Below are positions 3,523 through 50,359 of a stretch of DNA of 64,000 bases, in pieces (position 1 is the stretch's first letter; every line of letters starts with the position of its first letter). The position numbers were made by a program, and so were the translations under genes. The DNA is from Rhizaria sp. SCN 62-66 (taxonomy: Eukaryota). Where the stretch lies: positions 1 to 64,000 of the forward strand of contig MEDY01000013.1 in NCBI GenBank assembly GCA_001724265.1, given 5' to 3'. Below the pieces are notes generated by a model. The model saw only the letters and a list, made by a program, of their open reading frames with translations. It had not been told where the DNA came from and searched no databases.

Positions 3523-4686
3523 TTACGCACGCGCATTCTTCTAAATACTCATCTTGAGCTCTTCCAGCTCCTTCTGCGCGTCGGCCACTCGTGCCTCAGC
3601 CTCGCGCACGCGCGTGCTCGCGTCGCTGCGGATCGTCTCGACCATAGTAGCGTGGAACACCTTGTTCTTCTCCACCCGCGCGTCCGCCTCCTTCTTATAC
3701 TCGGCGATGCGCCCCTCGGCGTCCGCGGCCCGCGCCTCAGTCTCCGCGAGCCGGGCGTCGGCCGCGCTCTTGGCCGCCTCGCTCAGCAGCGCCTGCTGCG
3801 TCGCCGTGGCGTGCGCGGCGGTCATCTCGCGCAGCTCCGTCCTGAGCTCCAGCAGCATGTACACGAACATGCCACCTAGCGCGAGGATCACCATGGCGTT
3901 CGTGTACTGACTGCGAAGGTACTTCTTGTGGCTCACAGTCCGCGCCTCATTGTGACCGTAGCTGTGTTGACCGTGACTATGGTGGCTGTGGTGGCCGTGG
4001 TGAGTCTGGTGACCGTGGTGACTGTGGTGGGCCTTCGTCCGGGCCATGTGTTGGGCCTTGCCTGCGATTGCGCTGAGCACATGAGCGCCCGCGCTGCTGC
4101 TGCTGTTGTTATTGGTATTGCTGCTCAGATGAGTCGTTGCAGAGGCAAAGCGACGCGGGTCGAAGCCGTTGGGGGCCACTGAGACAAACCCAGCAGAGTT
4201 CTCAGTCAAAACGCGTGCTGAGACAGTGGTCGCAGTTGCAGTGGCAGACGCTGACGCTGTTGACACAGGAGCCACAGTTGCAGTAGTGAGAGAGCGGACC
4301 GAGGGGGGCGCAACGCTAGAGTTGACCGCAAAGAGCCAGTAGAGAGTTGGACCATTCTGTGACGCCGATGCAGATATGGCTGACGTAGCTGTTGACATAT
4401 TCGAGCGCAGGGTGTTGACAACAGTCAAATGGTTGTTGTTGTGACAGGAGGGGGCCGGAAACTGGCTGGGAACGCTAGAGGTGCTTGTAACAACCGTGCG
4501 AGTGTTGACCACGCCACTGCCAGATACACCGTGTGTGTACAGCAGTGCAGGCGAGGTCAGAGGCGAGAATGACCTCACTGAGGACGCCGAGAAGAGGCGC
4601 GAGGGACTGATACTACGGCCCAACGACTGGCGCGGTAGTATGCCCACAAGCTTGCTGGATAGCTTACGAGCCGTTGAGAAGCTCAT
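3523..4686 (-). CDS. Probable mitochondrion-targeted single-pass membrane protein with His-rich segment and C-terminal coiled coil (387 aa if TAG at 3541-3543 is sense)
   Basis: ATG at 4686 starts an S/R-rich, acid-free presequence-like N-terminus (MSFSTARKLSSKLVGILPRQSLGRS). It also has an HHSHHGHQTHHGHH tract, a TM segment YTNAMVILALGGMFVYML and an A/E/K/R heptad region. The TAG is followed by 5 codons and then TAA (3523-3525). Confidence 0.65.
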
Positions 4687-5447
4687 AGCTGGTCCAGTTC
4701 TGTTATGGTAGGTGTGTGGGACACAGACAAGTGAGAATGGAGGGGCGGTTGTGAGGTTTCGTTGGCTGATGGATCTAGGGATTGAGTTTGTGATGATGTA
4801 ACAGCAAGCACACAAATAATTAACATAAAGCCACTAATACCACAGCAGCCCAAGCAAAAAAGGGGACATTCGAACGTGTTTTGGTCTTATACCTCATGAA
4901 AACTGAAATTCGGAGAAGGCAGCTAGAGCAAAGCGAAAGCAGAGTGCGTAGTACCGCAAACTCAACTATAGACACGAAATAGACTATATGAACACTGCGG
5001 CTAAATATATAATGTAGCATAAGACGTTTGATAATAGGATAATAATGTTTCAAATAAGGTTGACGACTAGCTGTGGATATATTTGACGTTCGATTCGGCA
5101 GTCCGTTGCAGCGACTGTCAGCTCGGACTTCCAAGTTCACCACCAATTGGAAATTGACGCACTTTTTGACACTTTTCAAGCAAATACACGCTGAGCGCAA
5201 GGTGGTTAGTGAATAAAATACGGCACATACAATTAAAGACTGGGATGATATATTATTTTGGTGGTATTTGTCATTGTGGGACTTAACTGTATTGTGTAGA
5301 CGGCTCATTATGTATCACGTGTCCGTTTTTCAAGCTTGCAAAATCGACTCAATGTCAGTCGTGTCATCAACTAGTTATCGTAAAATGTATGATTCACTTG
5401 CGCGAATCAATCTTATGTAGCTGTAGTTTGCCATATCTCACGAGTAT

Positions 5448-8400
5448 TTACCCCTGCCATGACTGAACACTGTCCACATCAGTCAAATCTTCGATGCCAT
5501 GAGCTTCTCCAGCGCGGTTGTTCACCGTGGCGACAGTGGTAGTCCGATCACGATAGGCGATCGCATGAGCATTCATTGCAATAGCGCTGGTCGCCGTATT
5601 CTTAATGCTCAGTGTGTCGCGGTGCGCGGTGTCGTCAGTGATGTAGTGCGCTGAGATTCGCAGCGACGGCGCCAGCGATGAGCCATACGACGACGAGTCA
5701 TCGACCACAGCAGGCGAGGTCGCCTCACCAGCGTGTCCATGCCCGCGAGCAGCGGTTCCGTCACTGTTGAGACTCACAACCGAGGCGCGATCACTGTTAT
5801 TATCATAGCGGTCACCACCATTGTTGGCACCATCGTCATCACTCTCAGAGTGTCCGTTCGCACCCGCGTCAGTGACGAACGAGTTGTTGTTCTTCGACTT
5901 TACCTTACTCAAACTATCAGCGTGAAAGCTCGTGTTGTTGTGATTGCTGCTAAAACTAGTGTTGAGTGACGCTTCGCCTTGCTCCCGCGCACGCGAGGCC
6001 CACCGCTGCATCTTTTGTACTTCGCGCCGCGCTTTCGCCAGCGCTTCGGCTGCGAGGGCACGCGCGCGGTCGGGGGAAGTGAGGCCGTTAGAGCTAGACG
6101 TGAGGCCGCCAGAGTAGTGTGCAACACCGCGTTCCGAAGACGGCTGCGTCGCTGCAACTGTGTTTGTCGTCACAGGAGCGTGAGCAGCGGATGTGTTATG
6201 CGGAGAAGTTGCTTTGTCGCTGTTTGCATGAACTGCGACGCCGACGCTGGCTGCAAGTCCCGGAACAGCTGGTGCCACAGGAGCAGTATCGCGAAGAGCA
6301 GCATTGTTTGCGTTTGAAACTGCCGAAGTCGTAAGCGCAGTAGCCGCATTAAGGCTAGCGCTGTCGTTGGCTGCCTCAGTGTTCGCGCGAGCGTTGCCGC
6401 TGGCACTGTTAACGATGTTGTGCGGCGAGCTAATGACTGACCATGCTGGTGAAGGCGTTGTCGGCAAAGCAAACAGGACGCCGTTCATCAGCCGACTGCC
6501 AACAGCGATATTCGCTGCCGTCGCGTCAACAACAACTTCTGCGTCATCGTGGGCTGTGCCGTTGCTTTGAGTCGCTGCAGTGAGTCTCCCGGTCGTTGCG
6601 ACAACAGCAGCGGCGACCTCTTGCACACGGCTAACCTTCTCAGCACTGCGACCGACTTTGCTTGACTGAGAAGATGTCGCATCAGCTGCGTCAGCGTCCA
6701 CAGCGGTCACAGCCCCATTGGCGGGGCGGTTTTTGCTCGCGGTGTCAGTGGTATCTGCCACTTGAGGCAAAGGAGGCGGTGACTCTGTGAAAGGAACAGA
6801 AACGAGCGACTCGGACTCGTTTGACTTCACCTCAACACTCGCGCCAAGAGCGGCGCTTGCGGTAGTTTTTTGCGTCGTATTGACAGTGGGCACGGTTGCT
6901 ACTGTTAGCTCCGGGGCACCAGCACTCTGCGCTCGGTAGCGGTGTGTGAAGTGACTGTGAGCAGCAGAGAGACCCCCGCCAGCGGGACCGGCAGCAACTG
7001 ATAACTGACTATACGCACTTGTCTGGCTCTGAGACGACGAGTTTGTGTTCGTGGTGGCACTGCTCATTGCGGCCATGCGTTGGCCTTGAGCCAGCGCAAG
7101 AGCACGCGACAAAACATCATTGGCTGCGGCAGCCGAACTCTTCACGCTATGCGTGCTGGCAGCGGAGCGCGGTGCATTGCCAGCAGCACCGACCCCAACG
7201 GTGAAACCTGTCGCAGGCAAGGGAGGCCGACCCAGCTTTGCAGTGTTGGTGCTGCTGCTACTTGCACGTTGCGCGTCGTTCGGCAATGCTGAGGACAGTG
7301 TTGCCGCTGCTGACGAGGGCCGCTTTAAGTTCAGCCGCGACCGGGTTTGCGCAAGCGCAGTTTCAATCTTGGGTGACAAGGGACTCTTCAACAAACTCTG
7401 ATCACGCCCAGTATCACCTGTAGTCGCGTGACCGTGAGCAGCGTGCGCATCTCCAACACGAGAGTTGACTGATGAGGGCGAGAGTGTCAGAGTTGGCGTG
7501 GGGGTCACAGACGCCTTGATGTTTGTGATCATATCCTTCAAAGACGGCCTCCTGCGAGCAGTGTAGCTGTTGTGTGAAGAGACAGTTTCATCGACGCTTT
7601 GGCTGTCGATGTTGTCAGCAAGCCCTGATGGCCGCACAGGCGTCTCGAACAGCGATGACTTGTGTACACCGGAAGAAGCCGTAACATCAGCGACATGGGC
7701 ACTGTTGTCCAACGAGTTTGGAGTACTCTCGACGCCAGTGCTCGCGGTAACATTCAAGGCAGGCGCGGCAGGAAGCGCGGTTCGAGAGACTGCGGTAATC
7801 AACCGGGGCGCTGTGAGCGCTCGCACTTGTTCTGCAAGAGAGAGCTTTGCAGACAAACTTTGCCTCGACCCTGCAGCAGGCTGTGGAGCAACACTCGCAC
7901 TGATGTTCTGACTAACGGCGTCAATGTTACTGTTTTGTACGGCGGCAGAGCTGACTCTGACATCAGAGGCAACATGTTTCTCAGCGCCAGTGTTGCGCAA
8001 ACGCTGCACCATTGAACGCAAAGACTCACGAGGAGCAGTTTCAGGAACGGCGCCCCAGCTACTATTCGTACCATTGCTGCTGATGTTAGAAGCACTTGCG
8101 GCGGGGTTTGTAATGCTCGTACGATACGTGCTGACCATCTCACTCAAACTCACACGCGCAGGCTTGACTACGGTCTGAGAAAGTGAGACGCGCTTAGCTT
8201 TCAGCTGATCATGCTGCTGCTGTTGCACCTTGACAGGAGAGGCTACCTAAACTGGGGAGCGCATATGTTGCCGTTGCTGCCCAGCTTTAGGATTGAGAGA
8301 GCCAATGCCCTTATTCGGACTCAATGCCGACCTAGACGGAGCATTGGGACGGTTCAGCAAACGCTTCAGCGGAGACTGAGGCGGCGAAGCAATTGCAGCT

Positions 8401-9643
8401 GCCAGCAGTGCGTGCGCCGCAATCTCCATCGTTGCGTCCTGTAAGCTTAGGCTACTCGCTTGTTGCTGAGGCAGTGGCTGCTGCTGCTGCTGCTGCTGTT
8501 GTTGTTCTTGGTGTTGTTGTTGCTGCTGCTGCTGAAGCATGAGTTGATCTTTGAGTTGTTGCTGCTGCTGCGCAACAAGACTCGTCAGCTGAGAAACCGC
8601 ATCGGCCAGGCTGGCAAGCTCTTGGTTCTGACTGGCGGACACGTTGTTCGCGCTCTGACCACTTGCGGTAACGCTCTGCTGAACGTCGTTGCGCGGAGTA
8701 ATCCCGTCGGTTTGGCTTGTGCCGGTGTTCGTGCCCATGCCGAAGCTCATGTTAGAAACTGTGTTGGGATGAGCCGCGTGAATTGGACTCACGGCTGAGT
8801 CCTGCGTCGCTGACCCGACTGAAGGCACGACTGTGATGGTTGGAGCCTGACTCGTAAACGTGGCAACATTGTCAGCGCAGGAGCCTGTTGAAGGAGACTC
8901 AACCGTTGCCACAGGCACAGTGAACGCAAGCGTGCGCTCAACTTGCAGCACCGTATTGTCATCGTCAACTTCACCACGCTTCTTGTGAGCATGTTGCTGC
9001 CCACGGTCACGGATATCAGTCACCTCACCGGCACTTTGCTCATGACTGCTGTGCTGTCTGCCACTCGCGGTCGCCGTCGCGCGGGGAGACACAATGCGGT
9101 TCACTGAGTCAGCACTCTTGTTCAAACCACCCATGTTGCCGGTCGTCGTGGTTTGGGAAGGAATGGTCGTGTGAGCAGACTTCTCGTCATCGCTATCAGC
9201 AAAACAGCCGTTTTCATTCGCGCTCAATGCTGCAGCATTGGTATACACAAGCTGGCGTTGATCGCGCTCACTGCGTTCACGGTCACGAATTGCTTTCTTT
9301 GCACCTTTCGCATCTGCCTTTGCTTTGGCTTTGGCTTCAGCCCGCTTCTAAGCAGCAATAGCCTCAACGTTAGCAGACGCTGCCGCTGCAGCAGAGTCAG
9401 CAGCCATGAGGGCGACAGAGGCGACGCCAAGAGAACCCGCTGGAAGCGTCGACGCGGCTCGCAAGCGTTGTGGCATAGCGCGGGCGTAGTCCAGTCCAGT
9501 CACGTACTCGTCGACAAGTGAGCGCAGCATACGCTGGCGCTCCGTCACTCCGCGTTCGACACCGAAGACACGGGCGGTACCGCTGTGCGAGTCGCGGGCT
9601 GCGTTCGTACCCGTATGTGGATCGTTTAAGAACGAAGCATTGC

Positions 9644-9719
<76 letters not shown>

Positions 9720-11423
9720 ATGATTATTATTTGCGTGTGCGGCGGCGATTACAACGGCAGACGAGGCGTGCGCGCGCGTGCCAGTCTTTTTAGTCCGACG
9801 TTTACTGTCGTTCGTTGCATTCACTGTATTGCCACCCGGGACATTGCCATTGCTGACGGCGAGACCCTTGTCGTGACTGATGACAGGAGTGGTAATGTTA
9901 TTCGGAAAGCGGTCACTATCATCGTCGCTGCCGTCGCTGAAGAAGTCCGAGTCTAAGTCACTCGTGCTTGAGTCAGACGCACTGAAATCGTCAGGCTTTG
10001 GCCCCTGAGACCAGACAGCAGCACCTTTGGACAGATAGTTCGTCTGAGATTGAGTCGCAGCAAACATCCCTGAGCCGGCGACACTGGCGACGATGTCAGC
10101 GCCGTCGTAACCACTGACGTCGTTCTCGTCGTCGTCGGATCCGTTGGCCGTCACTGCTGTGCCGTACGCAACGTAGCGGCCTGCGCTCGCCCTTGCGCCG
10201 GGATCAGGGCCAAACAAGTCGGTGAGGTCGTTGTCGGCCCATACACGTGCGCGCTCAGTCGCAATCACCTTCTGCAGCCGATAGTCGTCGTCCACACTGC
10301 CATTCGCGGTGTTGTGACCGTGGGCAGGAGAGCGCAACATATCCGAGGCGCGCTTAAGCCGCCTCTCGCGCTTGCTCAGCTCCGCATCAAGTGCACCACC
10401 AGTGGCACCAATCACCGCAGAAACAGCGCGATTGGCCTTCGCAGCAGCAGATGCCGCGGTCGAGGCCGACAGCGAGGCGGACGCGATGAGGGCGCCGGCA
10501 ACACGAGCACTCACAGCGGACGCGGCCAGCGGCGCAGATGCTGCGGAAGAGGAACTTACCGACGCGGCAAAGCGAGACGCGGAAGCAAGCGGAGTCAGGT
10601 GTTGTTGAAGTGTCCGGCTTGAATGTGCGGCAGTGATGCGACTTGACTTCTCGGCGTCGCGCAACGCGAGGCGGCTCAATGGCGACAAGTCGCGCATTGA
10701 CGACGATGAAAGCGACATTGCATGCGCTGTCACATGCTGAGCAGTTGGATTGTGTGGGCGTTGCTGCTGCAAAGGAGCTACTTGCTATTGTTGTTGATGG
10801 TGCTGCTTATGGTCGTGTTGCTGTGGATAGGGCGTGACTGCCAGCAGTGACCGCGGGTGAACAGTCTGCGTGAAGTCCTCACTGTCAACACCAACAGCGC
10901 CACCCCGAGCGCTATCGCCGCTGCCATGGACGCTCGGTGGTTGCGACTGCGCCCGCTGCGACTGTGGTGTTGACCGCGACAACTGCGCCTGTTGTGAGCC
11001 GTGTGTCTGCGATGATTGAGACTGTGGCAAGGGAGTCAGAAACGAGGATGCGGGCCTCGCAGCTGGTCCATGCATCGGCGTTGCAGGAACAGCTCCGTCG
11101 GTCACTGTTGCAGAGCCTGTCGTGCGAACAACCGCCGGGTCGTGAGTGTTGCTCGGCTTTCCATTGCCGATGGATATCGCGTGGGTGGGCTCGACAGAGC
11201 CAGATACAGGGGAAAGCGCAGGTGCAAGAGCTGGATCAAAACCAACAGGCAAGGCCACGCTCACTGCCGGTGTGCTAAGAGACGGCGGCGCGCGGGAACG
11301 AGGACGTGCACGCAGCAGAGGCTTGGCTGAGTAAGACATAGACGCAGAGGTTGTGGGGGCGGGTGCAAGAGTTTCGCGCCGCGCCTGGGGACCATGACGG
11401 GCAGAAGTGACACTCCCACTCAT
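5448..11423 (-). CDS. Large low-complexity/disordered protein of unknown function (1991 aa, three internal TAG codons)
   Basis: Four ORF-track fragments (10785-11423, 9348-10772, 8247-9248, 5448-8228) share one frame and are separated only by single TAG codons. Composition is uniformly S/A/T/Q/N-rich across the junctions. Ends in TAA. Confidence 0.75.
9645..9719 (-). repeat. (AAC)25 microsatellite encoding poly-Asn
   Basis: Perfect (GTT)n run on the + strand, in frame in the 1991-aa gene. Confidence 0.95.
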
Positions 11424-12032
11424 TCTATAAAATTAAATTGGAATTGATGTTTAGTGAGTCTTATGAATTTCAAAATAGATACTTGCTTGGTACAAATAAA
11501 CAGGCTGGAGTTGAAGGCGACTGACAACGACACTGCAACGGACCTCTCTCGGTAGGCGGCCTGAATGTAGTTGTCCAAGTTAGCATTGATACTACCATTT
11601 AGGTGAAACGACATTTTGCAGTCGATGCAAGCTGTGTCAGATTTAGTTCAGCAAATTGAATGCAGGTCGATTGACGATCAAAATCGGGAGTTCCTTTGGA
11701 AACAAAGCGGCCCTCCTCTTGCCTCGCCGACGACGTTTCACCCAACGAATGATTACTTTCAAGTTTATTTATAATCGTTGTCGGGCTATGCTGTCATCTG
11801 AAATTGATACACCGTAACCAAACATTAATGATTTACATGTATCTAAACTTTCCTTATTCATGGCATTCTTTTGTTGCTTAGTACAGACCTTTCCCGCAGC
11901 CTTACTCCCCTCCACGGTCTTTTTGTATTGCAATTGCTGAGGAACGCACACTCTAAAAGGAAGCTAGGGCATCACGAAGAGCCAGCACCCAGGGTATTCT
12001 ACCCGTGGAGAAAGTGTTTCTTAACTAAAGCC

Positions 12033-15000
12033 ATGCTTTCGCCATTCCGGACTCTTTTGAATAAGAATGTGACTCAGAAGTTGCACTCTTACCGGACGAG
12101 CTTCATTGAGATACTCTTGCCTTTAATCTTAATATTCTTTATTGGGCTCTTAAAGACCACGATTTATGACTCATTCCAATTTGATTATGTTGCTTCAAAG
12201 CCGATTGTTGGTCATTTGGATGCAAACTACGCTATGTACAACACATTGTCTCAGACTGACAGGTATGACTTCCTGTTCTGCTTTGTCGGTTCTGATGATG
12301 GTTGGGAGGCTTTTCAGTCATTTTTAACTTCACCCACGAAACCGTTGCCCCCGAATCCTGTTCAAGCCTCTCATGTACATCGGTTTAACTCCCGTGAAGA
12401 CATGCTTGCGTACAACTCAGGCCGGTATAGTATGAAGCCGTTTCTCGTTGGCGTGGTGGAGACGATTACAACGACGCCCAACAAAAAGAAGCTGGTTGCA
12501 TCTTTCGGCGAAGCCACAGAGAGCGCACCAAACACCGCTTCTGCTGTTGGAGATGATGGCGTGTTAATGACGTACAACTATGACTTGTATCAGGATAGTT
12601 CAGTGTCATACCGCTATCACCGCGACGATTTGTACGATATGTCGCAGCGGACCTGGCACACGGATTCGTACATCGTTACGGGGCCGTATGCGGTCATGCA
12701 GGGTATTCAGGCGCATTTACTGCGCAAACACGGCGCTGTGACACTCGAAGCTGTCAACGCCACCCGCAGTGACGGGTCGAGTGATTATGCCAACCGTCGT
12801 GGGAATAGCTCCGCGAGTGCGACTGGTGCTAGTAATCAGCTCAGCATTCTCTCTGTGTCGAAGACGTTTTCATATCACCTTGCCTCTGGAGCGCTTCCCA
12901 AAGGCACTGGCACCAGCTATCTCCGCAACGCCGACACTGTAGTCGCCATTTCGATCTCTATTGCGCTGCTTATCCCGTTTCTTGTTCTGGTCTCATTATT
13001 GGTTGCTGAAAAAGAGACGAAAATGGTTGAAATGCTTCGAATTTCAGGCATCACGTTGCCTCAAATTGCTTTCTCCTGGGCGTGCTATTATGCAGTCGCA
13101 GTGGTCTTCCTTGCTCTTTCAGCGTCGTTTATCTTGAGCTTTATGTTGATTCAAGACACATCAATGATTCTAATTTTTATCACTCTTGTTCTTTGTCTCT
13201 TTAACATGCTCGCAATCTGCATTCTTTTTTCGTCGCTGTTCACATCAACGCGTTCCGCTCAGCTCGTGCTGGCACTCACCCTCGCGCTTTCAATCGCGCT
13301 TATTTCCGCGATCGAATCTGCAAGGACGCGCAATAGCGACACGGACATCACTGACTCGGTCACCGGTTTGCTCGCGTTGTCGTTTGCGCCGACTGGAATG
13401 AAGTTTGCGATTTCATGGCTGATTTACATGAATCGCGTTACCGTGTCGTCGGTCACTCCGTCGGATGCTGACGTGTATATGGACGGGTATTCTTTGACCG
13501 TAAGTTATACGGCGCTGTTGGTGGGAACAGCCGTTTTTTCAATTGTTGGGTTTTATATCAATGCTGTCGAAGCGGCGATGAATGATGGTCACAGCTTATA
13601 CTCCGCAATGCTATTTCCACTGACATCAGTTTTCTCCTGTTTCAGCTGCAAAAACAAGAAGTCGAAGTGTCACAAGAGTGTTGGATTGAAGCAACGTTTC
13701 TCACGCAAATCAACTGTTACTCACGTTACGAGTGACGCTTACAATCACAAGTTGAATGCGTCTGGTGACGATGGGTCTTTTGACGATGATGATGACTGTG
13801 GCGACGACGAGCGCGACCTGTATGCGCAGCCTGCACAGTATCATCGGTGTGCGATTATTGAACACAATCCGTCCAATCTGAACAATGGTAACAGCGAAAA
13901 TAGTAGCCTTACCTCGGAAAGCAGTTGTGTTCGCATAGAGGAGGACAACGAGATCTTGCGTATCCGCAACTTACGCAAAGTATACATGCCTTCAAATGTC
14001 ACCGCAGTGAAGAGACTTAACCTAGATATCCACCGAGGTGAGCTCTTTGCATTGCTTGGGCATAACGGTGCCGGTAAAAGCACGATTCTAAACTCATTGA
14101 CTGGGTTTTGTAAGCCGACACTGGGTAGCGCGAGGATTGACGGCGTCGATGTCCGTATTTGTCGCGATACTGTTACGGACGCATCAAACAACAATATTTG
14201 TTGTGCAACTGTACGAAATTTCTTCAGTAGTGCTGCAGTGGGCCGCTCCCGTTCAAACGCCCCAGCACTTGGCATGTGCCCCCAAGTGGACATCCTGTAC
14301 CCCGACATGACTCCACGCGACCACTTCACTCTTTTCGCAAGGCTACGTGGTGTGCCCGTCAAGCGCGTCCACAAAGAAGTCGATCGCTGGCTTGCTGCTC
14401 TCAACCTACTCGAACTTGCTGACACTCGTGCTGCCGCTGCTGCTGCTGCTTTAGCTGCATCCGCCGCTGCTGCAGCAAACACGACATCACCCATAGCGCA
14501 CACGAAGGCCACTGAAAGCCCACGTTTAAGTTACACACAGGGCAACAAGGGCACTCGCGGTCGTGTTCTCGCAGATGCCCCCGTCAGCACGCTGTCGGGC
14601 GGGCAGCGGCGGTGCGTGTCGCTGGGCATCGCGTTGATCGGCGACCCGAAGCTGGTGATCCTGGACGAGCCGACGGCGGGACTGGACGTCGCGGCGCAGG
14701 CCTCGGTGCGCGCGCTGCTGCAGGAGCAGCGCAGGCACCGCGCGATCCTGCTCACGACGCACTCGATGGAGGAGGCAGAGATATGCGACCGCATCGGCAT
14801 CCTTGCCAACGGCTCGCTGCAGACCGTAGGCTCGAGTCTGTTCCTCAAGCGCACGTTCGGCGCAGGGTACACGCTGACGGTCATGAGGACACCTGAAGAA
14901 ACTCTGACTGAGACAGCCGCGCGTGGCAAGAATGCTGTTGCTGCCGCGGCTGCTGCGCTTGCTGTGCTGGAGCCGACTGCTGCTGAACTGGCTGTGCAGG

Positions 15001-18000: not shown

Positions 18001-18614
18001 GTGGCGGGTTTCTTATCACGATGTCGAGTGCGAGCACTGACGTGCTTGATAAGGCTACGTTGTTGCTTCAAGAGCATTTCCCCAAGGCTGTCGTGAAAGG
18101 TAAGCGCGGAGTTACAATCAAGGTGTTCCTCCATAGCATCTTAGCTGATACTGTTGCGACACAAGCATTGCACACTGTTATAACTTCACCACAGGCGCAT
18201 GTTACCTCCCATGTGAACGACAGTCACTGTCATGACCGAGATGCCGCTGATGTGTCGGCTGCGTCTGTGTTTGGAGTACTTGAACAAGTCAAGAGTCTGA
18301 CCGGGATCGAGACATATTCGGTTGCTACTTCTACGCTAGAAGATGTATTTCTGCGTATTGTCGCTCCGCAGTACGCGTTGTCTAGCCCTGAAAGCAACGT
18401 GAACAATGTTCACAGTAACACAGATAGTGTCAGTGACAATGATAGCTCTGGTGTCTCAGTCAGCCGGGAAGCAGCATTTAATTCTCGATCAACTACACTG
18501 ACGTCTGCCGCACCAACGCAAGCTATGAACTCTGCGCATTGTTCGCGTCGTAGCGCCCCTGTGAGTGGCATCAGCAAGACAAATGCTCTCGAAGAACCAC
18601 TGCTGCCACAGTAA
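12033..18614 (+). CDS. ABCA: Full-size ABCA-subfamily ABC transporter (TMD-NBD-TMD-NBD, about 2140 aa); exons 12033-17000 and 17160-18614; one internal TAG
   Basis: NBD1 has GHNGAGKS, LSGGQRR, ILDEPTAGLD and TTHSMEEAE. NBD2 has GSNGAGKT, YSGGNKRKLS and LDEPSTGVDP. ABCA-typical TMD motifs include VAEKETKMVEMLRISG and ERLNSSKQLQLVSG. The halves are in frame across TAG 15435-15437. Phase-0 intron 17001-17159 (GTACGT...CAG). Ends in TAA. Confidence 0.9.
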
Positions 18615-19672
18615 GCATTCCAATTTTTCTCGCGCGTGTTAGTCCACCATGCACACATTTTGTTGAACGTGTTATCTAGCTATACATAAATATGCACCAC
18701 AAATACCATAAATCAACCTATTTTCTATTCGAGCTGATATACATTGCGCTGTCGCTGTAATGTCGAGGTTTATATCTTGCACTTAAGCTGCTCACGGTCA
18801 CTTGACCGGCGCTTTGTGGCCACAAAGGGAGAACCGAGCGACGTAGCAGCAAATAAATTTCTCTCTAGCGCATAGCTTCCTCGATATCATGGCCATTTAC
18901 ACGCACGACATACTTAACACGTCATTTCATATTTGGATTATTTATTGAGACTCCCTCAGACTTCTGGAACAACCGGTTTCTGAGCTTGATTTCCGGTCCT
19001 CACTTTGACTCGTCTTTCTTGCCTCCGTCTTTCCTTGCGCCTTCATAGCCTTCTCCACAAGCCTCCTCGATCAGAGCAGTCTTGCCCCACACATCGCCAA
19101 CCCACTTAACTGTTCCGTTTTGCGGTTCGAGTCATCCGGTGTTTCGCTACGCGTCCGCGTTTGTGTGTCGTGAGTGTTCTATCGTTGCTGTCCCTGTGAG
19201 TCGTCGCTCGTGCCGAAGTTTCTTGTGTTGATTGTTGTGTTGTGGCGTGTGTGTGTCGTATCATACTCATCCCTCTTCCAGCGATCTCTCATTTCTCTTT
19301 GTCCCTAGCTCTACATCACAACTTAAGCAACCTTTGACGCTCCTACGCGTTTGGATCGGAACAAAGCCAGCCTCACTCCACCCGCACCTTTCGTCCCCCT
19401 AAGACACACTGTACCCTTCAGCCCCCGCCGCTCGCGCCAGTCCCACTGCCGCCTCAGCCACTCCCCGTCCCCACAACTCTAGCGTTATCGACTTTTACGA
19501 TAACGGTGACGAAAGCAGCAACCTGGACCTCGACGCCCACGACTCAGGCTCGTCACACATCCACCGACCTCTCGCTACCAAGACCACCATAAACCCCGCC
19601 ACCGCCGCGTCCACCGCTGCTGACCCCGACACCGACCCGCTCTCCGCGCTGGCCTTTGATAGTATCCGCATC

Positions 19673-26615: not shown

Positions 26616-29200
<2,585 letters not shown>

Positions 29201-29931
29201 GCTCAACACCGGTTTTAGGTGTGGTGCGTGTGAGTAAGTGAGTGCGCCAACCCAGTGAAGTTGCACTGCACGGGCCGACGGACGAGGTATAATATATTAA
29301 TACAAGCGAAGTTGTGATGAGATTTTTTAAAAGCATACAAAAACGAGTTTTTCTATCCACAACTTGATTTGATCGGGTCAATCTGAGGATATTACGACCC
29401 ATATATTTTGTTTACATGCGTGCGCGCCTAAGCATTTTTGTACTTGTGGATGTTGTACAGTTCATATCATCGTTACCAACAACGCGAAAAAGTTCAGAGA
29501 ATATTCGATGTGGCGTTGTAACATAAAATCAATTCTTTATTTCTTGAATTTTGATTTAAATGAGCGAAGATACAAAAGCTTTGGGCGCGTGGCCACCTTA
29601 CTCCGGAGATGTGTTGTCATCGGGGTTCCTGGCCCGAAAAAATGTTGACTGACGGTCAGCGCGTGCAGCCACAGGGAGAAGGAGGCCAATTGGAGGTCTT
29701 CTAAACGCATGTCGTGTGAGTTTTCTCGTATAAAACTGGAATTTTATTAAAGCCCTTTGCGTAGATAATAATAATATTTGCATTATATGTTTGCCGACGA
29801 TGTTTAGCACGTCAAACACGTCCAGATTCATTCCTTGCTACACCTTGGCTTCCCTCTCACCCCACGTATTTTCATATCCCTCTCCTCACGTCGCTGCTCT
29901 TTCTTATTCGCTGATCGCTTGCTGCAGAGGC

Positions 29932-32900: not shown

Positions 32901-33003
32901 GCAGGCCCTCAACGGCGGCGTCGCGGTAGGGGCAGGCGCGGGCGGGGCGCCGCAGATGCCCGGCGGCGCGCCGCCACGCATGATGATGGGGGGACGCTAC
33001 TAA
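29932..33003 (+). CDS. Proline-rich WIP/verprolin-like protein with three WH2-like repeats and a C-terminal RhoGAP-like domain (1023 aa)
   Basis: Three copies of LLAGIQGFNKGGLKKAxTVDKSxP (WH2-type LKKA/T motif) among poly-Pro tracts. The C-terminal ESIFSEPG...IADVVKKWL...PIF...KISRARLAHVLGPAVFRS matches RhoGAP fold spacing. ATG at 29932 follows a pyrimidine tract and CAG. Ends in TAA. Confidence 0.75.
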   Translation: MSAPPPPPPGLDMDFGPAVPAAAPKPGGLLAGIQGFNKGGLKKATTVDKSGPLTAAGANSGGGGGGSSSSASSAPSGGPPGLAAALAARRAAAGGGGGGAAAAAPAPMTRGPPPAAAAAGGPPRFGAPAAAGPGAGAGAGGPPRFGGPAGGPPPMQQQSAAAAPPRFGGAGGPPPPMQQQSAPPPAFSRPPPPAAAPAAASAGTGGPPPPPMMDMDFGAPAPPVAAASRPPAPGGGGGGLLAGIQGFNKGGLKKAVTVDKSAPITAASGPAGAASGSGAGATPSGGPPGLAAALAARRAGAGSGASNPPPAAASSAPKWGSPSPAPAAAATPAPAKSWGTPSPAPASAAAAPAPRQWGNNNTPAPAPAAAAGPPAFAGANRGPPPMSPPAASAPPPAPAMAAAARAPPPAFTPPAAAAAAASGPPPAPAFDFGPPAPAPAAAAPAPSGGGGGGLLAGIQGFNKGGLKKAVTVDKSAPITSNNASAASSSSTSASSGGGPPGLAAALAARRAGAGAGAGSSPAFTPAPAPALVTASPGFGARPAPPSFTPSTPVSSANTASAPPPAFSPPMPAAAAAPAPAPAVRGPPPVMPPHPTPAAMAAAHANQPPPAGPAGPPPAVPPRRPSTLNSAPPTMPPPPAALISSPPQSAAPSPFVSPQQQSAGAGGARPPPPMFSSPPQSTTNAAGAGIGARPGGFGSPPPPMGSTPASAAPTPSAAGAAAGPAAAFGYRPATPASRPLFANNAGAGAGASPAMSPLVSPAATNANTAASATAASAAALGALTLPNKPPAVASSKYWVAELLVDHIIMKINDGRSPVESIFSEPGYKPQVDALFAFVNPDSTIPGAPNAVHASAIRAQLTTKYLDEYSTLAIADVVKKWLGAAAPIFAESAFSDAARVANGGDKVSGLAGLISRLEMPAQAILAQIMRMCLAITQAEARTKISRARLAHVLGPAVFRSPMDIDALKNVKNVNSLLEDMIANASTLCAAGAQALNGGVAVGAGAGGAPQMPGGAPPRMMMGGRY

Positions 33004-33412
33004 GAAAGTCATTAAATAGCAGGCAGTGGCTTTCACGTAAGTTCCGAAAGTGATTCAACTTGAGAGAGAGTAGTCGTCGAGGTGTTGCACATTTTTTGCT
33101 TCAGTCATCAACAGAATCAAACATTTTTATCCGGAAAAAAAAATAAGCCGAGGAGAGTGCTGACTTTTTTCGCTTTTGTTTCAAGAGAGCAGGAGGAAAA
33201 CGAGACCGCAGCAAGAACCAAAGCCCTATCAGACCAATTTTTACACAAGTATACCTTTTCATTTTCTTTTTGTCATACCAAATGATCATTGTTCAAGACT
33301 CTTATTATGCTATAAAGTAGTGATCAGAGGGTTGTTACGAAAGTATGCTCTTCAAATCATTACGCCACAATAATACAAAACAAAACTAAAACTAAAATCT
33401 CCAAAAACTTCG

Positions 33413-33585
33413 AGTCCAGTTGTAAAGGATCCGCGGCCGGCCGCGATTGGCACGCTAAGGGATCTTGTTCGGAATTAAGCCCTCCACTTAGCTGGATACA
33501 AATGTCATGAGGTTAGCTTCAGGTGTACATGCTCACTTTTGAGGACTGTTTGCGAGGCTAGCGGGCGCTGGTGTGTGCCACAGAT
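33413..33585 (+). ncRNA. Candidate box H/ACA-like RNA
   Basis: GC-richer island between convergent 3' ends with the layout hairpin (33415-33496), ATACAA (ANANNA, 33496-33501), second hairpin (33512-33562 core), ACA at 33580-33582. Confidence 0.3.
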
Positions 33586-33726
33586 GTTTCAAAAAGCGGT
33601 TTTCTATGTATTAAATATCCGAATTTAAATATAAGAATTTAAAGAATACATGTACTTGTGGATTCAAATTATTTTGTAATGACGTATCCATATATACAGA
33701 GATCATATGTGTTCTTTGAAGTTGTT

Positions 33727-36700
33727 TTAAGTAAAGATTGACATTGCAGCGTCGCTCCATAGAGCTTCGTCATCAACGTTGTTGCTGCCACCTTGAACAG
33801 TGTGATTAGCCATTGCTGCAGCCGAGCTACTCAGAGTGCTAGACTGCATCTGCAACGCCGCCAAGGCGTTTTTGTGGTACATGTTGCGTTCAGCACGCAC
33901 ATGACCTTCTTCCTCCTCTTCCTCCTCCTCGTGCTGACGAGCAAGCGCTCTATTTTGCTGTGTCTGCGCACTATGCTGTGATTTGGCTGCAAAAATTGAG
34001 TAGCGACCCTCAGTCGTCTGTATAATTTGCTTTTGCGGTACCAGTGCGTGGCTCATTTCGCGCGCCTTCTCCGCAGCAGCCTGGAGTGCCATAATTGGAG
34101 CCATCTGTTCCCACAGAAACGCGTCAGCCACCTCCTCGCTGCTACCAGTACCACTCTCCGCATGTGCACTCTTTGCAGCAACTTTAGCCCCGCTGGCAAG
34201 CGCGGCGACGTTGATGTACCTACGATTCGGGACTGGCGGCGGCATGCGAGCACTCTGTGGAGTGACTGGAGCTAGGCTGTGAGGACTCGAAACAATTGCA
34301 CTGTTGTTCGGTGACGCGACGCGTGGCGCGGCGTTTGCTTGATGAGGAGATTCAGCAACATGCTCGTCATCTGTGTTAACAATACGAGCAATTGGTGCAC
34401 TGTTGTCCCCCGTGCTGCGCCGAACAGCGGCTGCAGCTGCGTATGCGTCAAGTACACGCTGTTGCGATGCTGATACGGGCCCCCATGCACTGCTAGCGGG
34501 CGTATGGCTTTGAATAACAACTGGTTGGCTGTACGCAGCACTGACTTGGTTGCTCTTAGCCGAAGATTGCGGAAACCGGTTCATTTGGTTGAAGTGAGTT
34601 GGCGTCTGCGCCTGTGCAGTAGCAGACGGACTTAAGCTTTGGACAGCTGCAGGCTGATGACGATGCGTCTGAGGCTACCAGTGTAGCTAATATTGATTCG
34701 GAACATGTGCTTGTGTAGAGGACATTGACTGCGCAGGTGGACAAGGCTAATACCGTGACTGCAGCTGCGCGTTAGTTAGTGACTGGAACGGTGCCTGCGT
34801 CCCTGACTGCAACGCTGCTTGTGGCCGCAAAGCCGGTTGGTTTAGCGACAAAGCCGGTGTTGATAATGAGGAAGACAACGACGACGAGTACGCAGAAGGC
34901 GTTGATGCGGGGAATGAAAACACGTCAGAGTAAAATATCTGACTATCCTCGTCCGCAAGTGCAACTGTTAACGGCTTCTTTACGTTGCTCTGCTTTGGGT
35001 TACGACTATTCTTTGCCGCCGAAACTGCAGTCACCGAATTCGCAGTGTTGCGTGCTTCGCGGGGCGCAACCACTAAGTTCTTCTCCCTGGTGGTCCAGTT
35101 CTAGTGTTTTCTCGACAACTTTGAGTGTTCAAAGTCAGTGCCTTGTGTAGAGCGCACAAACTGTATCAGCTGTTCAGTCGTGTCTGAGCGGTTACGATCA
35201 TTATTTTTGGTCGTGTGCAAAAGTGGCGTTGCCAAGGTACTGCTCCGCGTCTCTTTGATTGCCTTATGACTGCTGTTCGAAGGTGAAACGTTGCTCTTGG
35301 AACCCACCACGGCTGCGTTACTCCTCAAATGCTGATTATTGTTGTAGTGTTGTTGCGCGTGATACTTTGATTGTAGCTGTTGTTGCTGCTGCTGTGTCTC
35401 ACGGTTGTAAATAGAGCGCAGAGCAGCCGTGTTGTTAGGAATGGGAGAAATGATTGGTTGTCTATGCTGCAACGGGGCACTGCTCTGCTGCTCTTGCGTG
35501 GGCGTGATCGCTGGAGCAACAGTAGCTGCATTGCTGCCGACACTCATGATCAACGATGGTGGTGCGCGCAGGTTGCTCGCCGTTGAGGTAATCGGCGTAT
35601 TAATATTATACGCCGTGCTAACAGGTGCAGTACTTTGACTCCCACGTACGTTAGGATTGTTGCTAGCCGTGCTGTCACCTACGCCGTAATTTGACTTGCC
35701 CGTCATAGTCATTAAAAGCCCGTTTGTCCAAATGCCAGCCATGCGCTCCCCGTTCGCCATGACCATCACGCCCGATCCCTCGGCCAGATCATTTGCCCAC
35801 AGTCCTTCGTGGCATGTGCCGTCAGGCCAGGTAAAGGCACCCTGTCCGCACCGCATGTTGTTGTGCCAGTAGCCGGTATAACGCGCGCCGTTGGCGTATT
35901 GCATTTCACCAAAACCGCTGCGCACAGTGCTCACAGACATCTGCTGCTGTTGCTGATGGTCTTGACTTGCGTGGCTGTTGTTAATGCTGCTGGACTCGCT
36001 TTGCGACGGTGTATCTTGTTCTGAAGTACGCCGTGTGCGCTTGACGATTACGTTGCCAGTGTAGCACGCGCCGTCAGGCCAGTTAATAGTGATGAAACGG
36101 TGTTCAGCCAAAGGCATAGGTTCACTAACTGAAGGTGTGGATAAATGAATAACTGGAGGAGTCGCGTTCATAGGAGATTGGCAAAGCTCTTGGGCAGCAC
36201 CGCGCGCGTATTGCTGTGACTGTTGCTGTTGTAGAGGATAGTACTATTGGCTCCGCACATATGCGTGCGCATATGTGTGATGGGGTTGTTGCAGCTGTTG
36301 CTGTTGATCATACGCATGTCGCTGCTGCTGACCATACGTGACGCTCTGGCTATGTTGCAACGGCTCCGGACCAAGAGACGGCGAACTCTGCGATTGCAGC
36401 TGTCCGCCGTGCAGTGACTGCGACTGCGAATGCTGCAACTGCGCAGGATGTGACTGGGAAAGCTGCAGCTGTAAGTGCTGCAAATCCGGGACCTAAGCCT
36501 GCGACTGGAGCTGGACATGCGACTAAAACTGACCTTGATCCTGGGCATCAGGCTTCAAATAAAGCCGAGACTGAGGTAATGGTTGCGTGCAAGGCGTTTG
36601 TGAGCGCAGATAATCAAGAGGACTCGGATACTGCCGGTACGAGCTGCTGCTACAATTGCTAGGACTGTTTGAGACAGCGCCAGACAGTATTGCCTTCGCA

Positions 36701-38340
36701 TTAACCGCCGGGGTTTCAAGAGTTGCTGACGGTGATGCAGGCGCCTGTGTTTGTGTCGGTGTTGCTGGTGTTGTGTCAATTGCGCGTGCAAAGAAAAACG
36801 CCGGTGAGTTGGGCATCAGCGGTGAAAGCACGTGTGCTGGAGAATGCGACTTCTTAGGAGCAGTTATCGGTGTAGTGGAAACAGATTGTGACTCATGATG
36901 CTGCGGTGGAGATGTTAAAGACAGTGGTGGCACTGGGAGCGTTTGTACAGATGATGATGACTGAGACTGGGCAATAGAAACAGTGGTTTGAGAATGAGCC
37001 GCATCTGCCGCGGATGTTGGAGAGACAGCAACACTGCTGTCGGCTAGGCTACTGTTCAGCATCACTGAGGTATTTGCGGCCGTCAATGCGATCGGCGATG
37101 GTGCAGCTGATAAAACTGCTGCTGCAGCTTCTCGAGCCGTGGCAGCAGCTGTCTGCAAAGCCGTCGGTATTAATGCGGCTGTGTACGCATCACGGAAGAA
37201 GCTCGCTGACACAGGCTCTGCAGTAAAAATGGGAGCAGAGATAACAAGTCCTGAGTAACTCCGGTAGATGGTTTCGGGATGGCTTGAGACTGTAGCCTCC
37301 GGTAGTGACTCGTTCGCCGGCTTCTCAATGACAGCAGTATTAACGGCGCTCGCATCAGCGGACACAGTCTCACGACGGATAGGTGTCACTGCCGAAGATA
37401 CAGGAACGGTCACCGCTGCTGTGACGACAAACGGGGTCAGAACGGTAGGTACTCCTGGTGGTGCGGACTCTACATGCTCCGCAGCTGTCGACCGGATTGG
37501 TGCCGTGTTTGTCGGCGCTGGCGGTGCAGGACGGCGCCGCAGTGGGAGCGGGGGCGGCTGCTGCTGCTGCTGCTGCTGTTGAGACGGCGTGCGCTGCAGC
37601 AACAGAGCCAATTCCTGCGACTGGCTCTGTTGTGGCTGCGCCTGTTGTAGCAGCACGGGTGCTGTGACGGTCTGAGTTTGCTCATGCGCCTGCTGTTGCT
37701 GTGAGGTGAAGTCAGCGCTCGAAGCTTGTTCGCTATGTTGCTGCTCAGTGAGCTGCTTGCTTGGTAATGCGTGTGCCGCTAATGCTGCCGCTGTGGGAGA
37801 CAGTAAAAGATTCAGACGCCGCTGCTGGCTCGGTTGCGGCAGCGCTGTGTGAAACGTCGGGGCGCACACTGACGGTTCCGGTTGTATCAGATCATCATCA
37901 TCATCGACGCCGTCCTCCAACTCCTGCCCAAGCGTACCTATATCGCTCTTAACACTGGGCTACACGTGAGTGTGCGGACCAGCAACTGGGCTAACCCCAG
38001 CCTCACCGTCTTTGTTAGACTCTGCGTCAGAGTCGTCGGTGTAGTCGCTGCTGAGGGAGATGTCGACTGGAAGATCGTCAAGAATCTCATGGGCATCGTT
38101 GCCTTTTGGTGCGATCGCCTGCTTTGGGGCAACGCTGGCAACGTACTGCGGTTTAGTTGCTGATTTAGGCGGCACTACTGTGATCTTAGTCTCTGATGTT
38201 GAAGTCGCGGCACCTTGATGGCACTGTTTCGGCTGCTGATGTTGCTGATGCTGCGGCTTCTGCTGCTGTGACGGTGTATCAACAACATCGACCGGCTTTG
38301 CAGCACGCTTGGACTTAACTCCAAAGAATGATAGTTTCAT
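33727..38340 (-). CDS. MORN-repeat-containing, Q/S/P-rich protein (1537 aa, eight internal TAG codons), intronless
   Basis: Single frame from ATG 38340 (preceded by an in-frame TAA) to TAA 33727-33729, interrupted only by TAG. MORN repeats at about 35715-36085: GFGEMQYANGARYTGYWHNNMRCGQGAFTWPDGTCHEGLWANDLAEGSGVMVMANGERMAGIW. Confidence 0.8.

Positions 38341-50309: not shown

Positions 50310-50359
<50 letters not shown>

Follow-up and report, generated by a model that had tools for sequence, protein, structure and literature searches.

A eukaryotic contig from wastewater and bioreactor metagenomes in which UAG is probably translated as glutamine and UAA signals termination

Does UAG still terminate translation in an organism in which this codon occurs repeatedly inside long open reading frames? 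The stretch of DNA that raises this question, a 64-kb window analysed here over its whole length, belongs to an uncultured eukaryote whose introns are of the GTACG type, and it comes from metagenomes of wastewater and bioreactors. Thirteen TAG codons are in frame (lowest coordinates 3541, 8247, 9348, 10785, 15435, 34675, 34687, 34747, 35101, 36244, 36493, 36523 and 37960); the first-pass annotation had assigned them to four genes on both strands, and on re-examination every coordinate proved to be exact. If TAG is read as sense, the pieces are joined into ORFs of 456, 1994, 1731 and 1540 codons. The coding frame of these four genes (5,639 codons) contains 13 TAG codons but not a single TAA or TGA, as compared to means of 52.2 TAA, 43.6 TAG and 132.8 TGA in the five other frames of the same genes. 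About 185 in-frame TAA and TGA codons would be expected, and the chance of finding none is about e^-185. Thus, TAA and TGA are strictly excluded whereas TAG is merely depleted. We regard it as highly likely that UAG is a sense codon in this organism, and it is very probably so in combination with UAA as a stop; the complete reading, in which UAG is translated, most probably as glutamine, and UAA signals termination, is in our judgement probable. This agrees with the central reading of the first-pass annotation (UAG translated, UAA stop), which is now supported by the continuity of the ORFs through 11 to 13 TAGs with TAA and TGA wholly excluded, by a MORN domain located past four TAGs, by an ABCA architecture and an ABCA paralog that both extend across a TAG, by the same TAGs in the assemblies of three studies, and by TAA at all 13 resolvable gene ends.

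Eleven of the 13 TAGs are firm; they lie on the minus strand, three in the ORF g1 and eight in the MORN gene, and the GC content around them (0.50-0.56) is coding-like. g1 (5448-11432, 1994 codons) encodes a low-complexity protein without a Pfam family; it ends with TAA and contains no internal TAA or TGA, and its TAGs are codons 1062 (8247-8249), 695 (9348-9350) and 216 (10785-10787), the last within a run of Gln codons. The ORF of the MORN-repeat protein (33727-38349, 1540 codons) likewise ends with TAA, is free of internal TAA and TGA, and has TAG as codons 1225 (34675-34677), 1221 (34687-34689), 1201 (34747-34749), 1083 (35101-35103), 702 (36244-36246), 619 (36493-36495), 609 (36523-36525) and 130 (37960-37962). 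Its MORN repeats (Pfam E=5.6e-12, residues ~824-845 and neighbours) are encoded downstream of TAG codons 130, 609, 619 and 702; the production of this domain therefore requires four read-throughs, and beyond the first TAG the frame continues without TAA or TGA for more than 1,400 codons. A full search with residues 560-1540 for orthologs of this protein gave just self-fragments and unrelated MORN proteins. The firm TAGs are limited to two lineage-specific, low-complexity genes.

Two of the TAGs, 3541 and 15435, are ambiguous. The first one (3541-3543, minus strand) belongs to g4 (3523-4686, minus strand, from the likely Met start to TAA), a gene for a coiled-coil/transmembrane protein without a Pfam family, and precedes the TAA at 3523 by six codons; it may be a sense codon or the real stop of g4. 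A fourteenth in-frame TAG, at 4834, precedes the likely start of this gene and is surrounded by AT-rich sequence. The only TAG on the plus strand (15435-15437) is codon 1197 of the ORF of an ABCA-type ABC transporter (11847-18614, TMD1-NBD1-TMD2-NBD2, two exons, TAA end). NBD1 (722-944) precedes this TAG, and TMD2 (1363-1654) as well as NBD2 come after it. The uninterrupted ABCA paralog P0005 (1861 aa) can be aligned before and after it (query 640-1192 and 1210-1630), with the TAG in the gap between the two alignment blocks, i.e. in the unconserved NBD1-TMD2 linker, where it is either sense or the acceptor of a possible mini-intron (15381-15437). It had also been claimed that no gene needs an internal TAA or TGA. 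This holds once introns are allowed but not otherwise, since the ABCA gene is interrupted by a spliceosomal intron of 159 nt (17001-17159, plus strand, GTACGT...CAG), which is AT-rich and carries three in-frame TGAs.

Are the TAGs real? They could be errors of sequencing or assembly, or the genes could be decaying pseudogenes, and it fits such an explanation that the TAG-bearing genes have a lower GC content and low complexity and that two of them are without homologs. For the eight TAGs of the MORN gene, the assembly-error check proposed earlier gave a clear answer: contigs of X1 and X2 cover 8/8 and those of X4 cover 7/8 of them, codon 702 being outside the listed X4 pieces, and there were no differences. 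This comparison took in the MORN-gene TAGs rather than the five at 3541-15435; these contigs come from three studies (2015-2025), and X1 is possibly the window's own source. The letter-for-letter match excludes assembly error for these eight codons. Decay would have to account for 5,639 codons without the expected TAA and TGA; moreover, there are no frameshifts in the TAG-bearing genes, and even under a model with transitions only the probability that 13 of 13 nonsense codons are TAG is 7.7e-4. In addition, the MORN gene is represented among RNA-library contigs (X6), at 33526-33834 and at 34402-34577; X6 also covers 39882-40801. Taken together, artefact or decay is an explanation to which we give hardly any credence.

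Another way to retain the standard code would be a change of the TAGs in the RNA, either by U-to-C editing to CAG or by the removal of short in-frame introns. The organism has introns, the X6 contigs span none of the eight MORN-gene TAGs, and a GTATGT motif, placed so that it and TAG 15435 would bound an in-frame segment of 57 nt, could make this TAG an acceptor. This is the only strict donor among 14 TAGs, at a chance expectation of about two, and for 10 of the 14 TAGs the preceding 300 nt contain no donor-like motif in frame, the loose motif being expected by chance in ~45% of cases. Moreover, the four confirmed introns, the one in the ABCA gene and three in the DDX3-like helicase gene (53629-53815, 54356-54529 and 54787-54969, plus strand), are 159-187 nt long, AT-rich, start with GTACG and contain many stops, unlike the coding-like surroundings of the firm TAGs. 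Site-specific U-to-C editing of nuclear mRNAs is not known as an established system. A change at the RNA level would also leave unexplained why TAG never serves as a terminator, and we consider it very unlikely.

The gene ends provide the counterpart to the in-frame TAGs. All 13 resolvable ends use TAA, and none uses TAG or TGA (P=2.9e-8 under a base-composition null), with most C-termini being placed by ORF ends and AT-rich flanks rather than by homology. On the minus strand, these TAA stops terminate the genes for an MFS transporter (713-715), g4 (3523-3525), g1 (5448-5450), a 903-codon gene (20994-20996) and the MORN gene (33727-33729, spanned by the X6 contig 33526-33834). On the plus strand, they are found in the genes for the ABCA transporter (18612-18614), a gene at 19403-20578 (20576-20578), a DDX5-like helicase (29198-29200), a WH2/RhoGAP protein (33001-33003), a 486-codon gene (40836-40838), a 3071-codon gene (50902-50904), a DDX3-like helicase (55389-55391) and LUC7 (60760-60762). 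Each of the 13 stops is followed by a purine and then by AT-richer sequence. Two ORFs have TGA ends, both of which fall inside introns. That no gene needs TAG as a stop, as had been proposed, is thus borne out. With a GC content of 58% (coding GC3 reaches 0.83), TAA would be the least expected terminator, but it is nonetheless used at all 13 resolvable ends. The absence of TGA terminators in 13 genes is an unusual feature as well.

The use of UAG is sparse and limited to few genes. Within the four genes that use it, UAG makes up ~4% of the Gln-type codons, and in the nine other, GC3-richer ORFs (8,758 codons, 323 Gln codons) there is no TAG at all, with 12.5 expected (P=3.9e-6). This suggests that decoding of UAG may be costly or partial. 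UAG might even have a dual role, as a leaky or context-dependent stop that is possibly read by a near-cognate tRNA-Gln and tolerated in some genes only. In favour of such a role, only 4 of the 13 ORFs contain TAG, TAG 3541 just ahead of a TAA may be a real stop, and the base following TAG is a pyrimidine at 8 of 13 sites (C in 6) as compared to a purine after 13/13 TAA stops (Fisher P=0.0016). The +4 pattern of TAG, however, is that of CAG (C in 6/13 versus 95/200; P=0.77), thus no special context is needed. Moreover, the MORN gene has eight TAGs, and four of these precede the one domain that can be recognised in its product; without efficient decoding, almost no full-length protein would be made. 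GC pressure alone accounts for part of the bias between genes: the share of CAA, 38% in the genes with TAG, is 18% in the ORFs without it. As for dual codon use of the Condylostoma/Blastocrithidia type, there is no clear TAG terminator among the 13 ends, a sample small enough to miss rare dual use and in which TAG 3541 is ambiguous, and TAA is never in frame. A dual or partial role of UAG is improbable in our view, and its scarcity fits the idea that UAG is a synonym of CAG beginning with T, which GC pressure would remove or which better-conserved genes would avoid.

If UAG is a sense codon, which amino acid does it specify? Glutamine is the best-fitting candidate, and we hold this assignment to be quite likely; the earlier inference of Gln is likewise best-fitting by the Q-rich neighbourhood, the spread of TAG over the genes and the +4 base. 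Three comparisons point to Gln, and each of them has its limits. First, the density of Q within 8 or 12 residues of the 11 firm TAGs is 0.20, equal to that around Q residues (0.20-0.22), and it exceeds the density around L (P=0.025-0.027), Y (0.005-0.012), H (0.05-0.11) and K, E, S and W (<=0.002). Within 3 or 5 residues, the density is 0.136, below the 0.24-0.26 for Q and similar to H; in a naive-Bayes ranking of the context, Q comes first at +-5 but fifth at +-3, where H, Y, P and S rank above it. The neighbourhood evidence thus varies with the scale. Second, the spread of TAG over the four genes is best explained by Q (logL -4.16), followed by P (-4.83), H (-5.83), E (-6.11) and L (-9.35), and over the 13 ORFs the values are -13.1 for Q and -22.8 for L. 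Third, the following base resembles that of CAG. It should be kept in mind that, regardless of their meaning, the TAGs could have arisen from CAG codons in disordered, Q-rich regions that tolerate such changes, and that no TAG aligns to a conserved column, in agreement with the earlier remark that none occupies a recognised conserved position.

UAG may accordingly be sense for another amino acid, i.e. Leu, His, Pro, Glu, Ser or Tyr, an unlikely but by no means negligible alternative. Q density does not reject His (P=0.05-0.66), and Pro is close to Q in the gene-spread test; both have codons that are two changes away from TAG. Neither of the two is known as a UAG reassignment. By the Q density within 8 or 12 residues, L (P~0.03), Y (~0.01) and E, K, S and W (<=0.002) are rejected. 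UAG reassignments to Leu, Ser and Glu have all been published, and those listed in PMC11687900 include neither His nor Pro. For Leu, there is also the grouping of the organism with the rhizarian Plasmodiophora in the IDE tree, since UAG stands for Leu in the one rhizarian with a known change of this kind, and Guttulinopsis, a relative of that rhizarian, has nearly only UAA stops (PMC5304391). However, the Leu-rich ABCA exon (199 L) has one TAG as compared to eight in the MORN gene (100 L). TAG is not spread like Leu: the distribution in the four genes is ~180-fold less likely under L than under Q, and so Q-rich a neighbourhood is atypical for L.

Assuming that UAG is translated, most probably as Gln, ribosomes would insert an amino acid at UAG, and UAG would have been lost as a stop. 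By analogy with other UAG-only codes, the decoder would be a tRNA with the anticodon CUA, for which tRNA-Gln CUG is the probable ancestor, and eRF1 might recognise UAG poorly. The 64-kb window contains no tRNA genes of any kind (ARAGORN; Rfam), nor does it encode eRF1. Since the genome is GC-rich (58%), codon capture under AT pressure cannot explain the loss of UAG stops. It is tempting to speculate that the window shows an early stage of a code change in an unplaced GC-rich eukaryote, with UAA as the sole terminator, UAG as a rare sense codon and UGA already dropped as a stop; very sparse, gene-restricted UAG may mark an early or costly stage. We put this forward only tentatively, as a rather doubtful extension. 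In this view, UAG would be restricted to GC-poorer disordered proteins, and UGA, found at 0/13 ends, would not yet have appeared in frame. If it were true, the change would have occurred against GC pressure, and the organism would be a natural one-stop-codon eukaryote with UAG and UGA free or nearly so. Nuclear code changes are rare, and each further independent case tests ideas of stop-codon reassignment. In practice, too, such a code matters, as the proteins of this organism are cut short at TAG by standard gene callers in public catalogues (P0006, P0132, P0283 and P0133); the fragments P0132 and P0283 end at MORN codon 1083.

Several studies of wastewater and bioreactors have recovered the same organism in their metagenomes. 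No close relatives were present in any collection searched, and no further contigs of the organism were found in three collections. In a tree of a single gene, IDE, it falls into a clade (SH-aLRT 98) with Plasmodiophora and other sequences, including one filed under the euglenid Ploeotia vitrea. No ciliates were among the named sequences in the best 120 IDE matches, and the rows of the tree included no fornicate sequence, which places a link to Fornicata outside its reach.

How does this organism compare to known systems? Nuclear codes in which UAG and UAA are uncoupled are a handful only (PMC11687900). The UAG-only codes listed in the first-pass annotation agree with the literature, which adds Scotinosphaera (UAG=Ser) and Protocruzia tuzeti (UAG=Gln) and provides precedents for UAA as the predominant stop (PMC11687900, PMC5304391). 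NCBI translation table 15 (TAG=Gln; TAA and TGA stops) is formally the same code and would translate the genes of the window; it is used by crAss-like phages (PMC9523058), whereas the window is nuclear DNA of a eukaryote and has spliceosomal introns, and the original attribution of this table to Blepharisma has been called an apparent error (PMC5304391). The rhizarian exLh (Sainouroidea; UAG=Leu, UAA and UGA stops 56 : 15; PMC5304391) shares UAG as a sense codon, has with Guttulinopsis a relative that uses almost only UAA, and may be linked to the window organism by the grouping of IDE with Plasmodiophora, a kinship that depends on a single gene tree whose clade also holds the sequence filed as Ploeotia vitrea. 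It differs by its heavy use of UAG (384 in 71 genes) and by the amino acid, Leu being disfavoured here.

Among the phyllopharyngean ciliates, Hartmannula sinica and Trochilia petrani read UAG as Gln and three TARA MAGs read it as Leu, and tRNAs with a CUA anticodon are the proposed decoders (PMC11687900). The likeness concerns the UAG-only change, the preference for UAA stops (87-98% of genes in the ciliates) and the discovery from metagenomic or genomic data alone. In the ciliates, however, 78-91% of the genes carry UAG, which makes up 18-32% of the Gln codons, as compared to 4/13 ORFs and about 4% in those four here, and the GC content reported for the class is 27-54% rather than 58%. In Iotanema spirale (Fornicata; UAG=Gln, UAA and UGA stops; PMC5304391), too, UAG alone is reassigned and never a bona fide stop, UAA predominates (104 UAA : 15 UGA versus 13 : 0 here), and the usage is moderate (204 UAG in 126 genes versus 13 in about 15 genes). 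In Iotanema, an alignment to conserved columns demonstrated Gln, and eRF1 has a change in its GTS motif, whereas here Gln is inferred from neighbourhood and gene spread; moreover, the window organism is GC-rich, has GTACG-type introns, carries TAG in only 4/13 ORFs and shows no TGA stop. Three features of a UAG-only code are found in the window: in-frame UAG in bona fide coding sequence free of in-frame UAA and UGA, firm at 11 of 13 sites; UAA and not UAG as the terminator at 13 ends, with TAG 3541 of g4 as a possible true stop; and TAGs in genomic DNA for the eight codons of the MORN gene. Very probably, this organism thus joins the class of UAG-only codes that includes Iotanema and some phyllopharyngean ciliates.

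The reading frames of four genes suggest that this organism very probably translates UAG as sense; UAA is a stop, the sole one seen in the window, and glutamine would be the most likely meaning of UAG. The first-pass annotation had built the same reading on 13 TAG codons, and all of them were confirmed to lie in frame where it had placed them: one in the gene at 3523-4686 (minus strand; TAG at 3541), three in the 1994-codon gene at 5448-11432 (minus strand; 8247, 9348, 10785), one in an ABCA-type transporter gene at 11847-18614 (plus strand; 15435), and eight in a MORN-repeat gene at 33727-38349 (minus strand; 34675, 34687, 34747, 35101, 36244, 36493, 36523, 37960). If TAG is read as sense, the fragments join into open reading frames of 456, 1994, 1731 and 1540 codons. 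The 5,639 codons of these frames contain 13 TAG but neither TAA nor TGA, whereas the other five frames (about 5,635 codons each) have on average 52.2 TAA, 43.6 TAG and 132.8 TGA. The chance of finding no TAA or TGA in the four frames is about e^-185, and selection has therefore kept them clear of these two stop codons; TAG is tolerated, and its density is about one third of the background. Eleven TAGs, those of the 1994-codon and the MORN genes, are firm. The codon at 3541 is ambiguous: a TAA of the same gene follows only six codons further on, and this TAG may be the true stop. A fourteenth TAG (4834) belongs to an AT-rich region that precedes a probable start codon.

The contig is eukaryotic and nuclear, since it carries four GTACG...YAG spliceosomal introns: one in the ABCA gene (17001-17159) and three in a DDX3-like gene (53629-53815, 54356-54529, 54787-54969). 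All are AT-rich and 159-187 nt long. This raises the possibility that the TAGs are acceptors of small introns. For the TAG at 15435 an in-frame GTATGT 57 nt upstream could indeed serve as the donor, and this codon is ambiguous as well; the putative 57-nt intron would be unlike the four confirmed ones, and a strict donor of this kind precedes one of the 14 TAGs, which is about the chance expectation. As an explanation of all TAGs, mini-introns were rejected: ten of the 14 have no in-frame donor-like motif in the 300 nt upstream. Near the 11 firm TAGs, the GC content is of the coding type (0.50-0.56).

Recognisable protein sequence continues beyond the TAGs. Four of them precede the MORN repeats (E=5.6e-12), the sole recognisable domain of the MORN gene, and in the ABCA gene the order is NBD1, the TAG, and then TMD2 and NBD2. 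P0005, an uninterrupted ABCA paralog of 1861 residues in a public assembly, aligns both before and after this TAG (query 640-1192 and 1210-1630). Public gene catalogues, in turn, cut the proteins of this organism exactly at TAGs: P0006 stops before codon 1197, and P0132 and P0283 before codon 1083. The paralog is located on a 122-kb contig, its overall identity to the ABCA gene is 30-58%, and the intron positions differ; in NBD1, and again where NBD2 begins, identity reaches 100% over about 90 residues. This mosaic suggests gene conversion between the paralogs. The low GC content of the TAG-bearing genes could point to a foreign origin; for the ABCA gene this was rejected, because its GTACGT intron is of the host type and long parts of its sequence are identical in the paralog.

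Two further explanations, assembly errors and gene decay, were considered. We compared positions 33000-41000, with the eight TAGs of the MORN gene, to contigs from three studies, one of which (run X1) may be the source of the window itself. At the TAGs, the agreement was letter for letter in X1 (8/8), X2 (8/8) and X4 (7/8 covered), and errors of assembly thus fail as an explanation for these eight codons. Contigs of a polyA metatranscriptome (X6) comprise the 3' end of the MORN gene, one internal piece and the neighbouring gene, and cover none of the eight TAGs. A pseudogene reading was rejected as well: the lack of TAA and TGA in frame speaks against it, and under a model of nonsense mutations that allows only transitions from CAG, CAA, CGA and TGG, the probability that all 13 nonsense codons are TAG is 7.7e-4. 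The TAG-bearing genes contain no frameshifts.

The gene ends bear on the other half of the proposed code. The claim that no gene needs TAG as its stop holds: all 13 resolvable gene ends, most of them placed by the ends of open reading frames rather than by homology, are TAA (713, 3523, 5448, 18612, 20576, 20994, 29198, 33001, 33727, 40836, 50902, 55389, 60760), and each is followed by AT-richer sequence. The next base is always a purine (A in seven cases, G in six). Under a base-composition null model with a TAA share of 26%, TAA at 13 of 13 ends has P=2.9e-8, and for TAA versus TGA alone P=1.1e-5. Therefore, TAG does not serve as a terminator at these ends, and there is at the least a strong avoidance of TGA: it terminates none of the 13 genes and is never in frame in the four TAG-bearing ones. 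The annotation had also stated that no gene model needs an internal TAA or TGA. This is true once introns are allowed for: the ABCA intron at 17001-17159 contains three in-frame TGA codons, and two long open reading frames run into TGA codons, both inside introns: the TGA at 56610 overlaps a GTGAGT donor, and the frame ending at 63636 leaves an incomplete M16 domain, with the protein continuing in a downstream frame.

As to the amino acid, neither the ABCA nor the MORN homolog searches yielded a conserved alignment column at a TAG, in agreement with the earlier remark that none of them falls at a recognised conserved position. The ABCA codon lies unaligned in a linker gap of the P0005 alignment, and among the seven matches to this region only the paralog spans the site. 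For MORN residues 560-1540, a HMMER search against 1.84 billion representatives gave, among the best 150 of 20,488 matches, only self-fragments and unrelated MORN-repeat proteins. Calculated over ±8 and ±12 residues, the density of Gln around the 11 firm TAGs is 0.20, as compared to 0.20-0.22 around Gln itself; it exceeds that around Leu (P=0.025-0.027), Tyr (0.005-0.012) and Lys, Glu, Ser or Trp (<=0.002), and the comparison with His is borderline (0.05-0.11). The TAG counts per gene (1, 3, 1, 8) fit the Gln content best (logL Q -4.16, P -4.83, H -5.83, E -6.11, L -9.35), as does the spread over all 13 open reading frames (Q -13.1, H -15.3, L -22.8). Moreover, C follows TAG in 6/13 cases, CAG in 95/200 and CAA in 55/122, versus 25% for all codons. 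The proposed assignment to Gln is thus favoured by the wider context, the spread over genes and the 3' base, but not at close range: within ±3 and ±5 residues the Gln density is 0.136, below the 0.24-0.26 around Gln, and a naive-Bayes context model ranks Gln first at ±5 and fifth at ±3. The TAGs may have originated from CAG in tolerant, Gln-rich disordered segments, whatever residue they encode. Provided that UAG is sense, Gln is a likely reading. The base 5' of TAG is T in 7/13 cases as compared to 43/200 for CAG (binomial P=0.011), a bias that may stem from the mutational context, with TC changing to TT, or be accidental. Neither tRNA genes (ARAGORN) nor non-coding RNAs (Rfam, gathering thresholds) were found in the window.

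The use of TAG is sparse and restricted to certain genes. In the four genes, TAG makes up 3.9% of CAG+CAA+TAG, and it is absent from nine other open reading frames (8,758 codons, 323 Gln codons; 12.5 expected, P=3.9e-6). The TAG-bearing genes have a lower GC3 (0.52-0.68 vs 0.62-0.83) and a higher CAA share (38% vs 18%), and the GC-rich paralog P0005 has 1861 codons without interruption. GC pressure against a synonym that starts with T accounts for part of this restriction; for the rest, it may be that conserved or highly expressed genes avoid TAG, or that its decoding is costly.

The window has a GC content of 58%, which varies strongly along the sequence (0.50 to 0.74 in segments of 4 kb). 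Its two strands together carry about 15 protein genes, among them those for an MFS transporter, the ABCA transporter, a WH2/RhoGAP protein, the MORN-repeat protein, two DEAD-box helicases, LUC7, an insulin-degrading-enzyme (IDE, M16) homolog and several long proteins without Pfam family. Adjacent genes differ sharply in GC (0.49 in ABCA exon 1 vs 0.72-0.74 in the 3071-codon and WH2/RhoGAP genes), and the spacers between genes share the AT-richness of the introns. The unbroken 3071-codon frame (41689-50904, plus strand; GC 0.72, GC3 0.81) has neither a Pfam match nor a TAG. As to repeats, about 26 Asn codons follow one another in the 1994-codon gene (9640-9719, minus strand; a TTG repeat on the plus strand), and a DDX5-like helicase has a long N-terminal repeat rich in Gly, Tyr and Ser (26690-27144, plus strand). 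At three places (35376-35395, 35934-35955, 38232-38268), short CAG/CTG-rich stretches recur in numerous further contigs from the same metagenomes, where they show up as joints and loose ends; the genome of this organism seems to be rich in low-complexity coding sequence of the Gln/Leu type.

The ABCA stretch is present, in whole or in part, in eight public runs from five studies, labelled as wastewater, bioreactor, activated sludge or fuel cell. No close relative of the window was found: in metagenome contigs, the ABCA protein had no matches other than remote ABC genes of eukaryotes or bacteria (51 loci, best identity 29%), in genome contigs all matches were bacterial or MAG ABC genes (60 loci), and in viral contigs there were none. 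The DDX3-like exon matches everything at about 45% identity, and the best matches of the IDE homolog (47-50% identity) come from many phyla, with no ciliate among the named ones of the 120 listed. In a quick maximum-likelihood tree of 52 of these 120 (named taxa and the top unnamed matches), it pairs with one NCBI sequence (SH-aLRT 100) inside a clade of ten (SH-aLRT 98), in which names are attached only to the rhizarian Plasmodiophora and to an entry that EukProt lists under the euglenid Ploeotia vitrea. The tree may be taken as a weak hint at a placement in SAR/Rhizaria, and a rhizarian affinity would be only a lead; it matters because exLh, the known rhizarian case, reads UAG as Leu (PMC5304391, in excerpt), which is disfavoured here.

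A word search of an open-access subset of the literature returned no GC-rich wastewater eukaryote with UAG as sense. According to excerpts of two papers, UAG alone is reassigned to Gln in Iotanema spirale (UAA vs UGA ends 104:15; PMC5304391), Protocruzia tuzeti (PMC11687900; PMC5304391), Hartmannula sinica and Trochilia petrani (PMC11687900), to Leu in exLh (56:15; PMC5304391) and a TARA phyllopharyngean clade (PMC11687900), and to Ser in Scotinosphaera (PMC11687900; PMC5304391); in an oligohymenophorean, it is Glu, with UAA as Lys (PMC11687900). UAA is described there as the main terminator in all UAG-only cases, with 87-98% in the ciliates (PMC11687900). The window shares with these codes the in-frame UAG, the absence of UAG ends and the presence of UAA ends, and is very probably a new case of a known, rare kind of code. 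What is noteworthy here is the sparse, gene-restricted TAG in a GC-rich genome together with the absence of TGA terminators: in UAG-only ciliates, again according to the excerpt, UAG occurs in 78-91% of the genes (PMC11687900), as compared to four of 13 open reading frames here.
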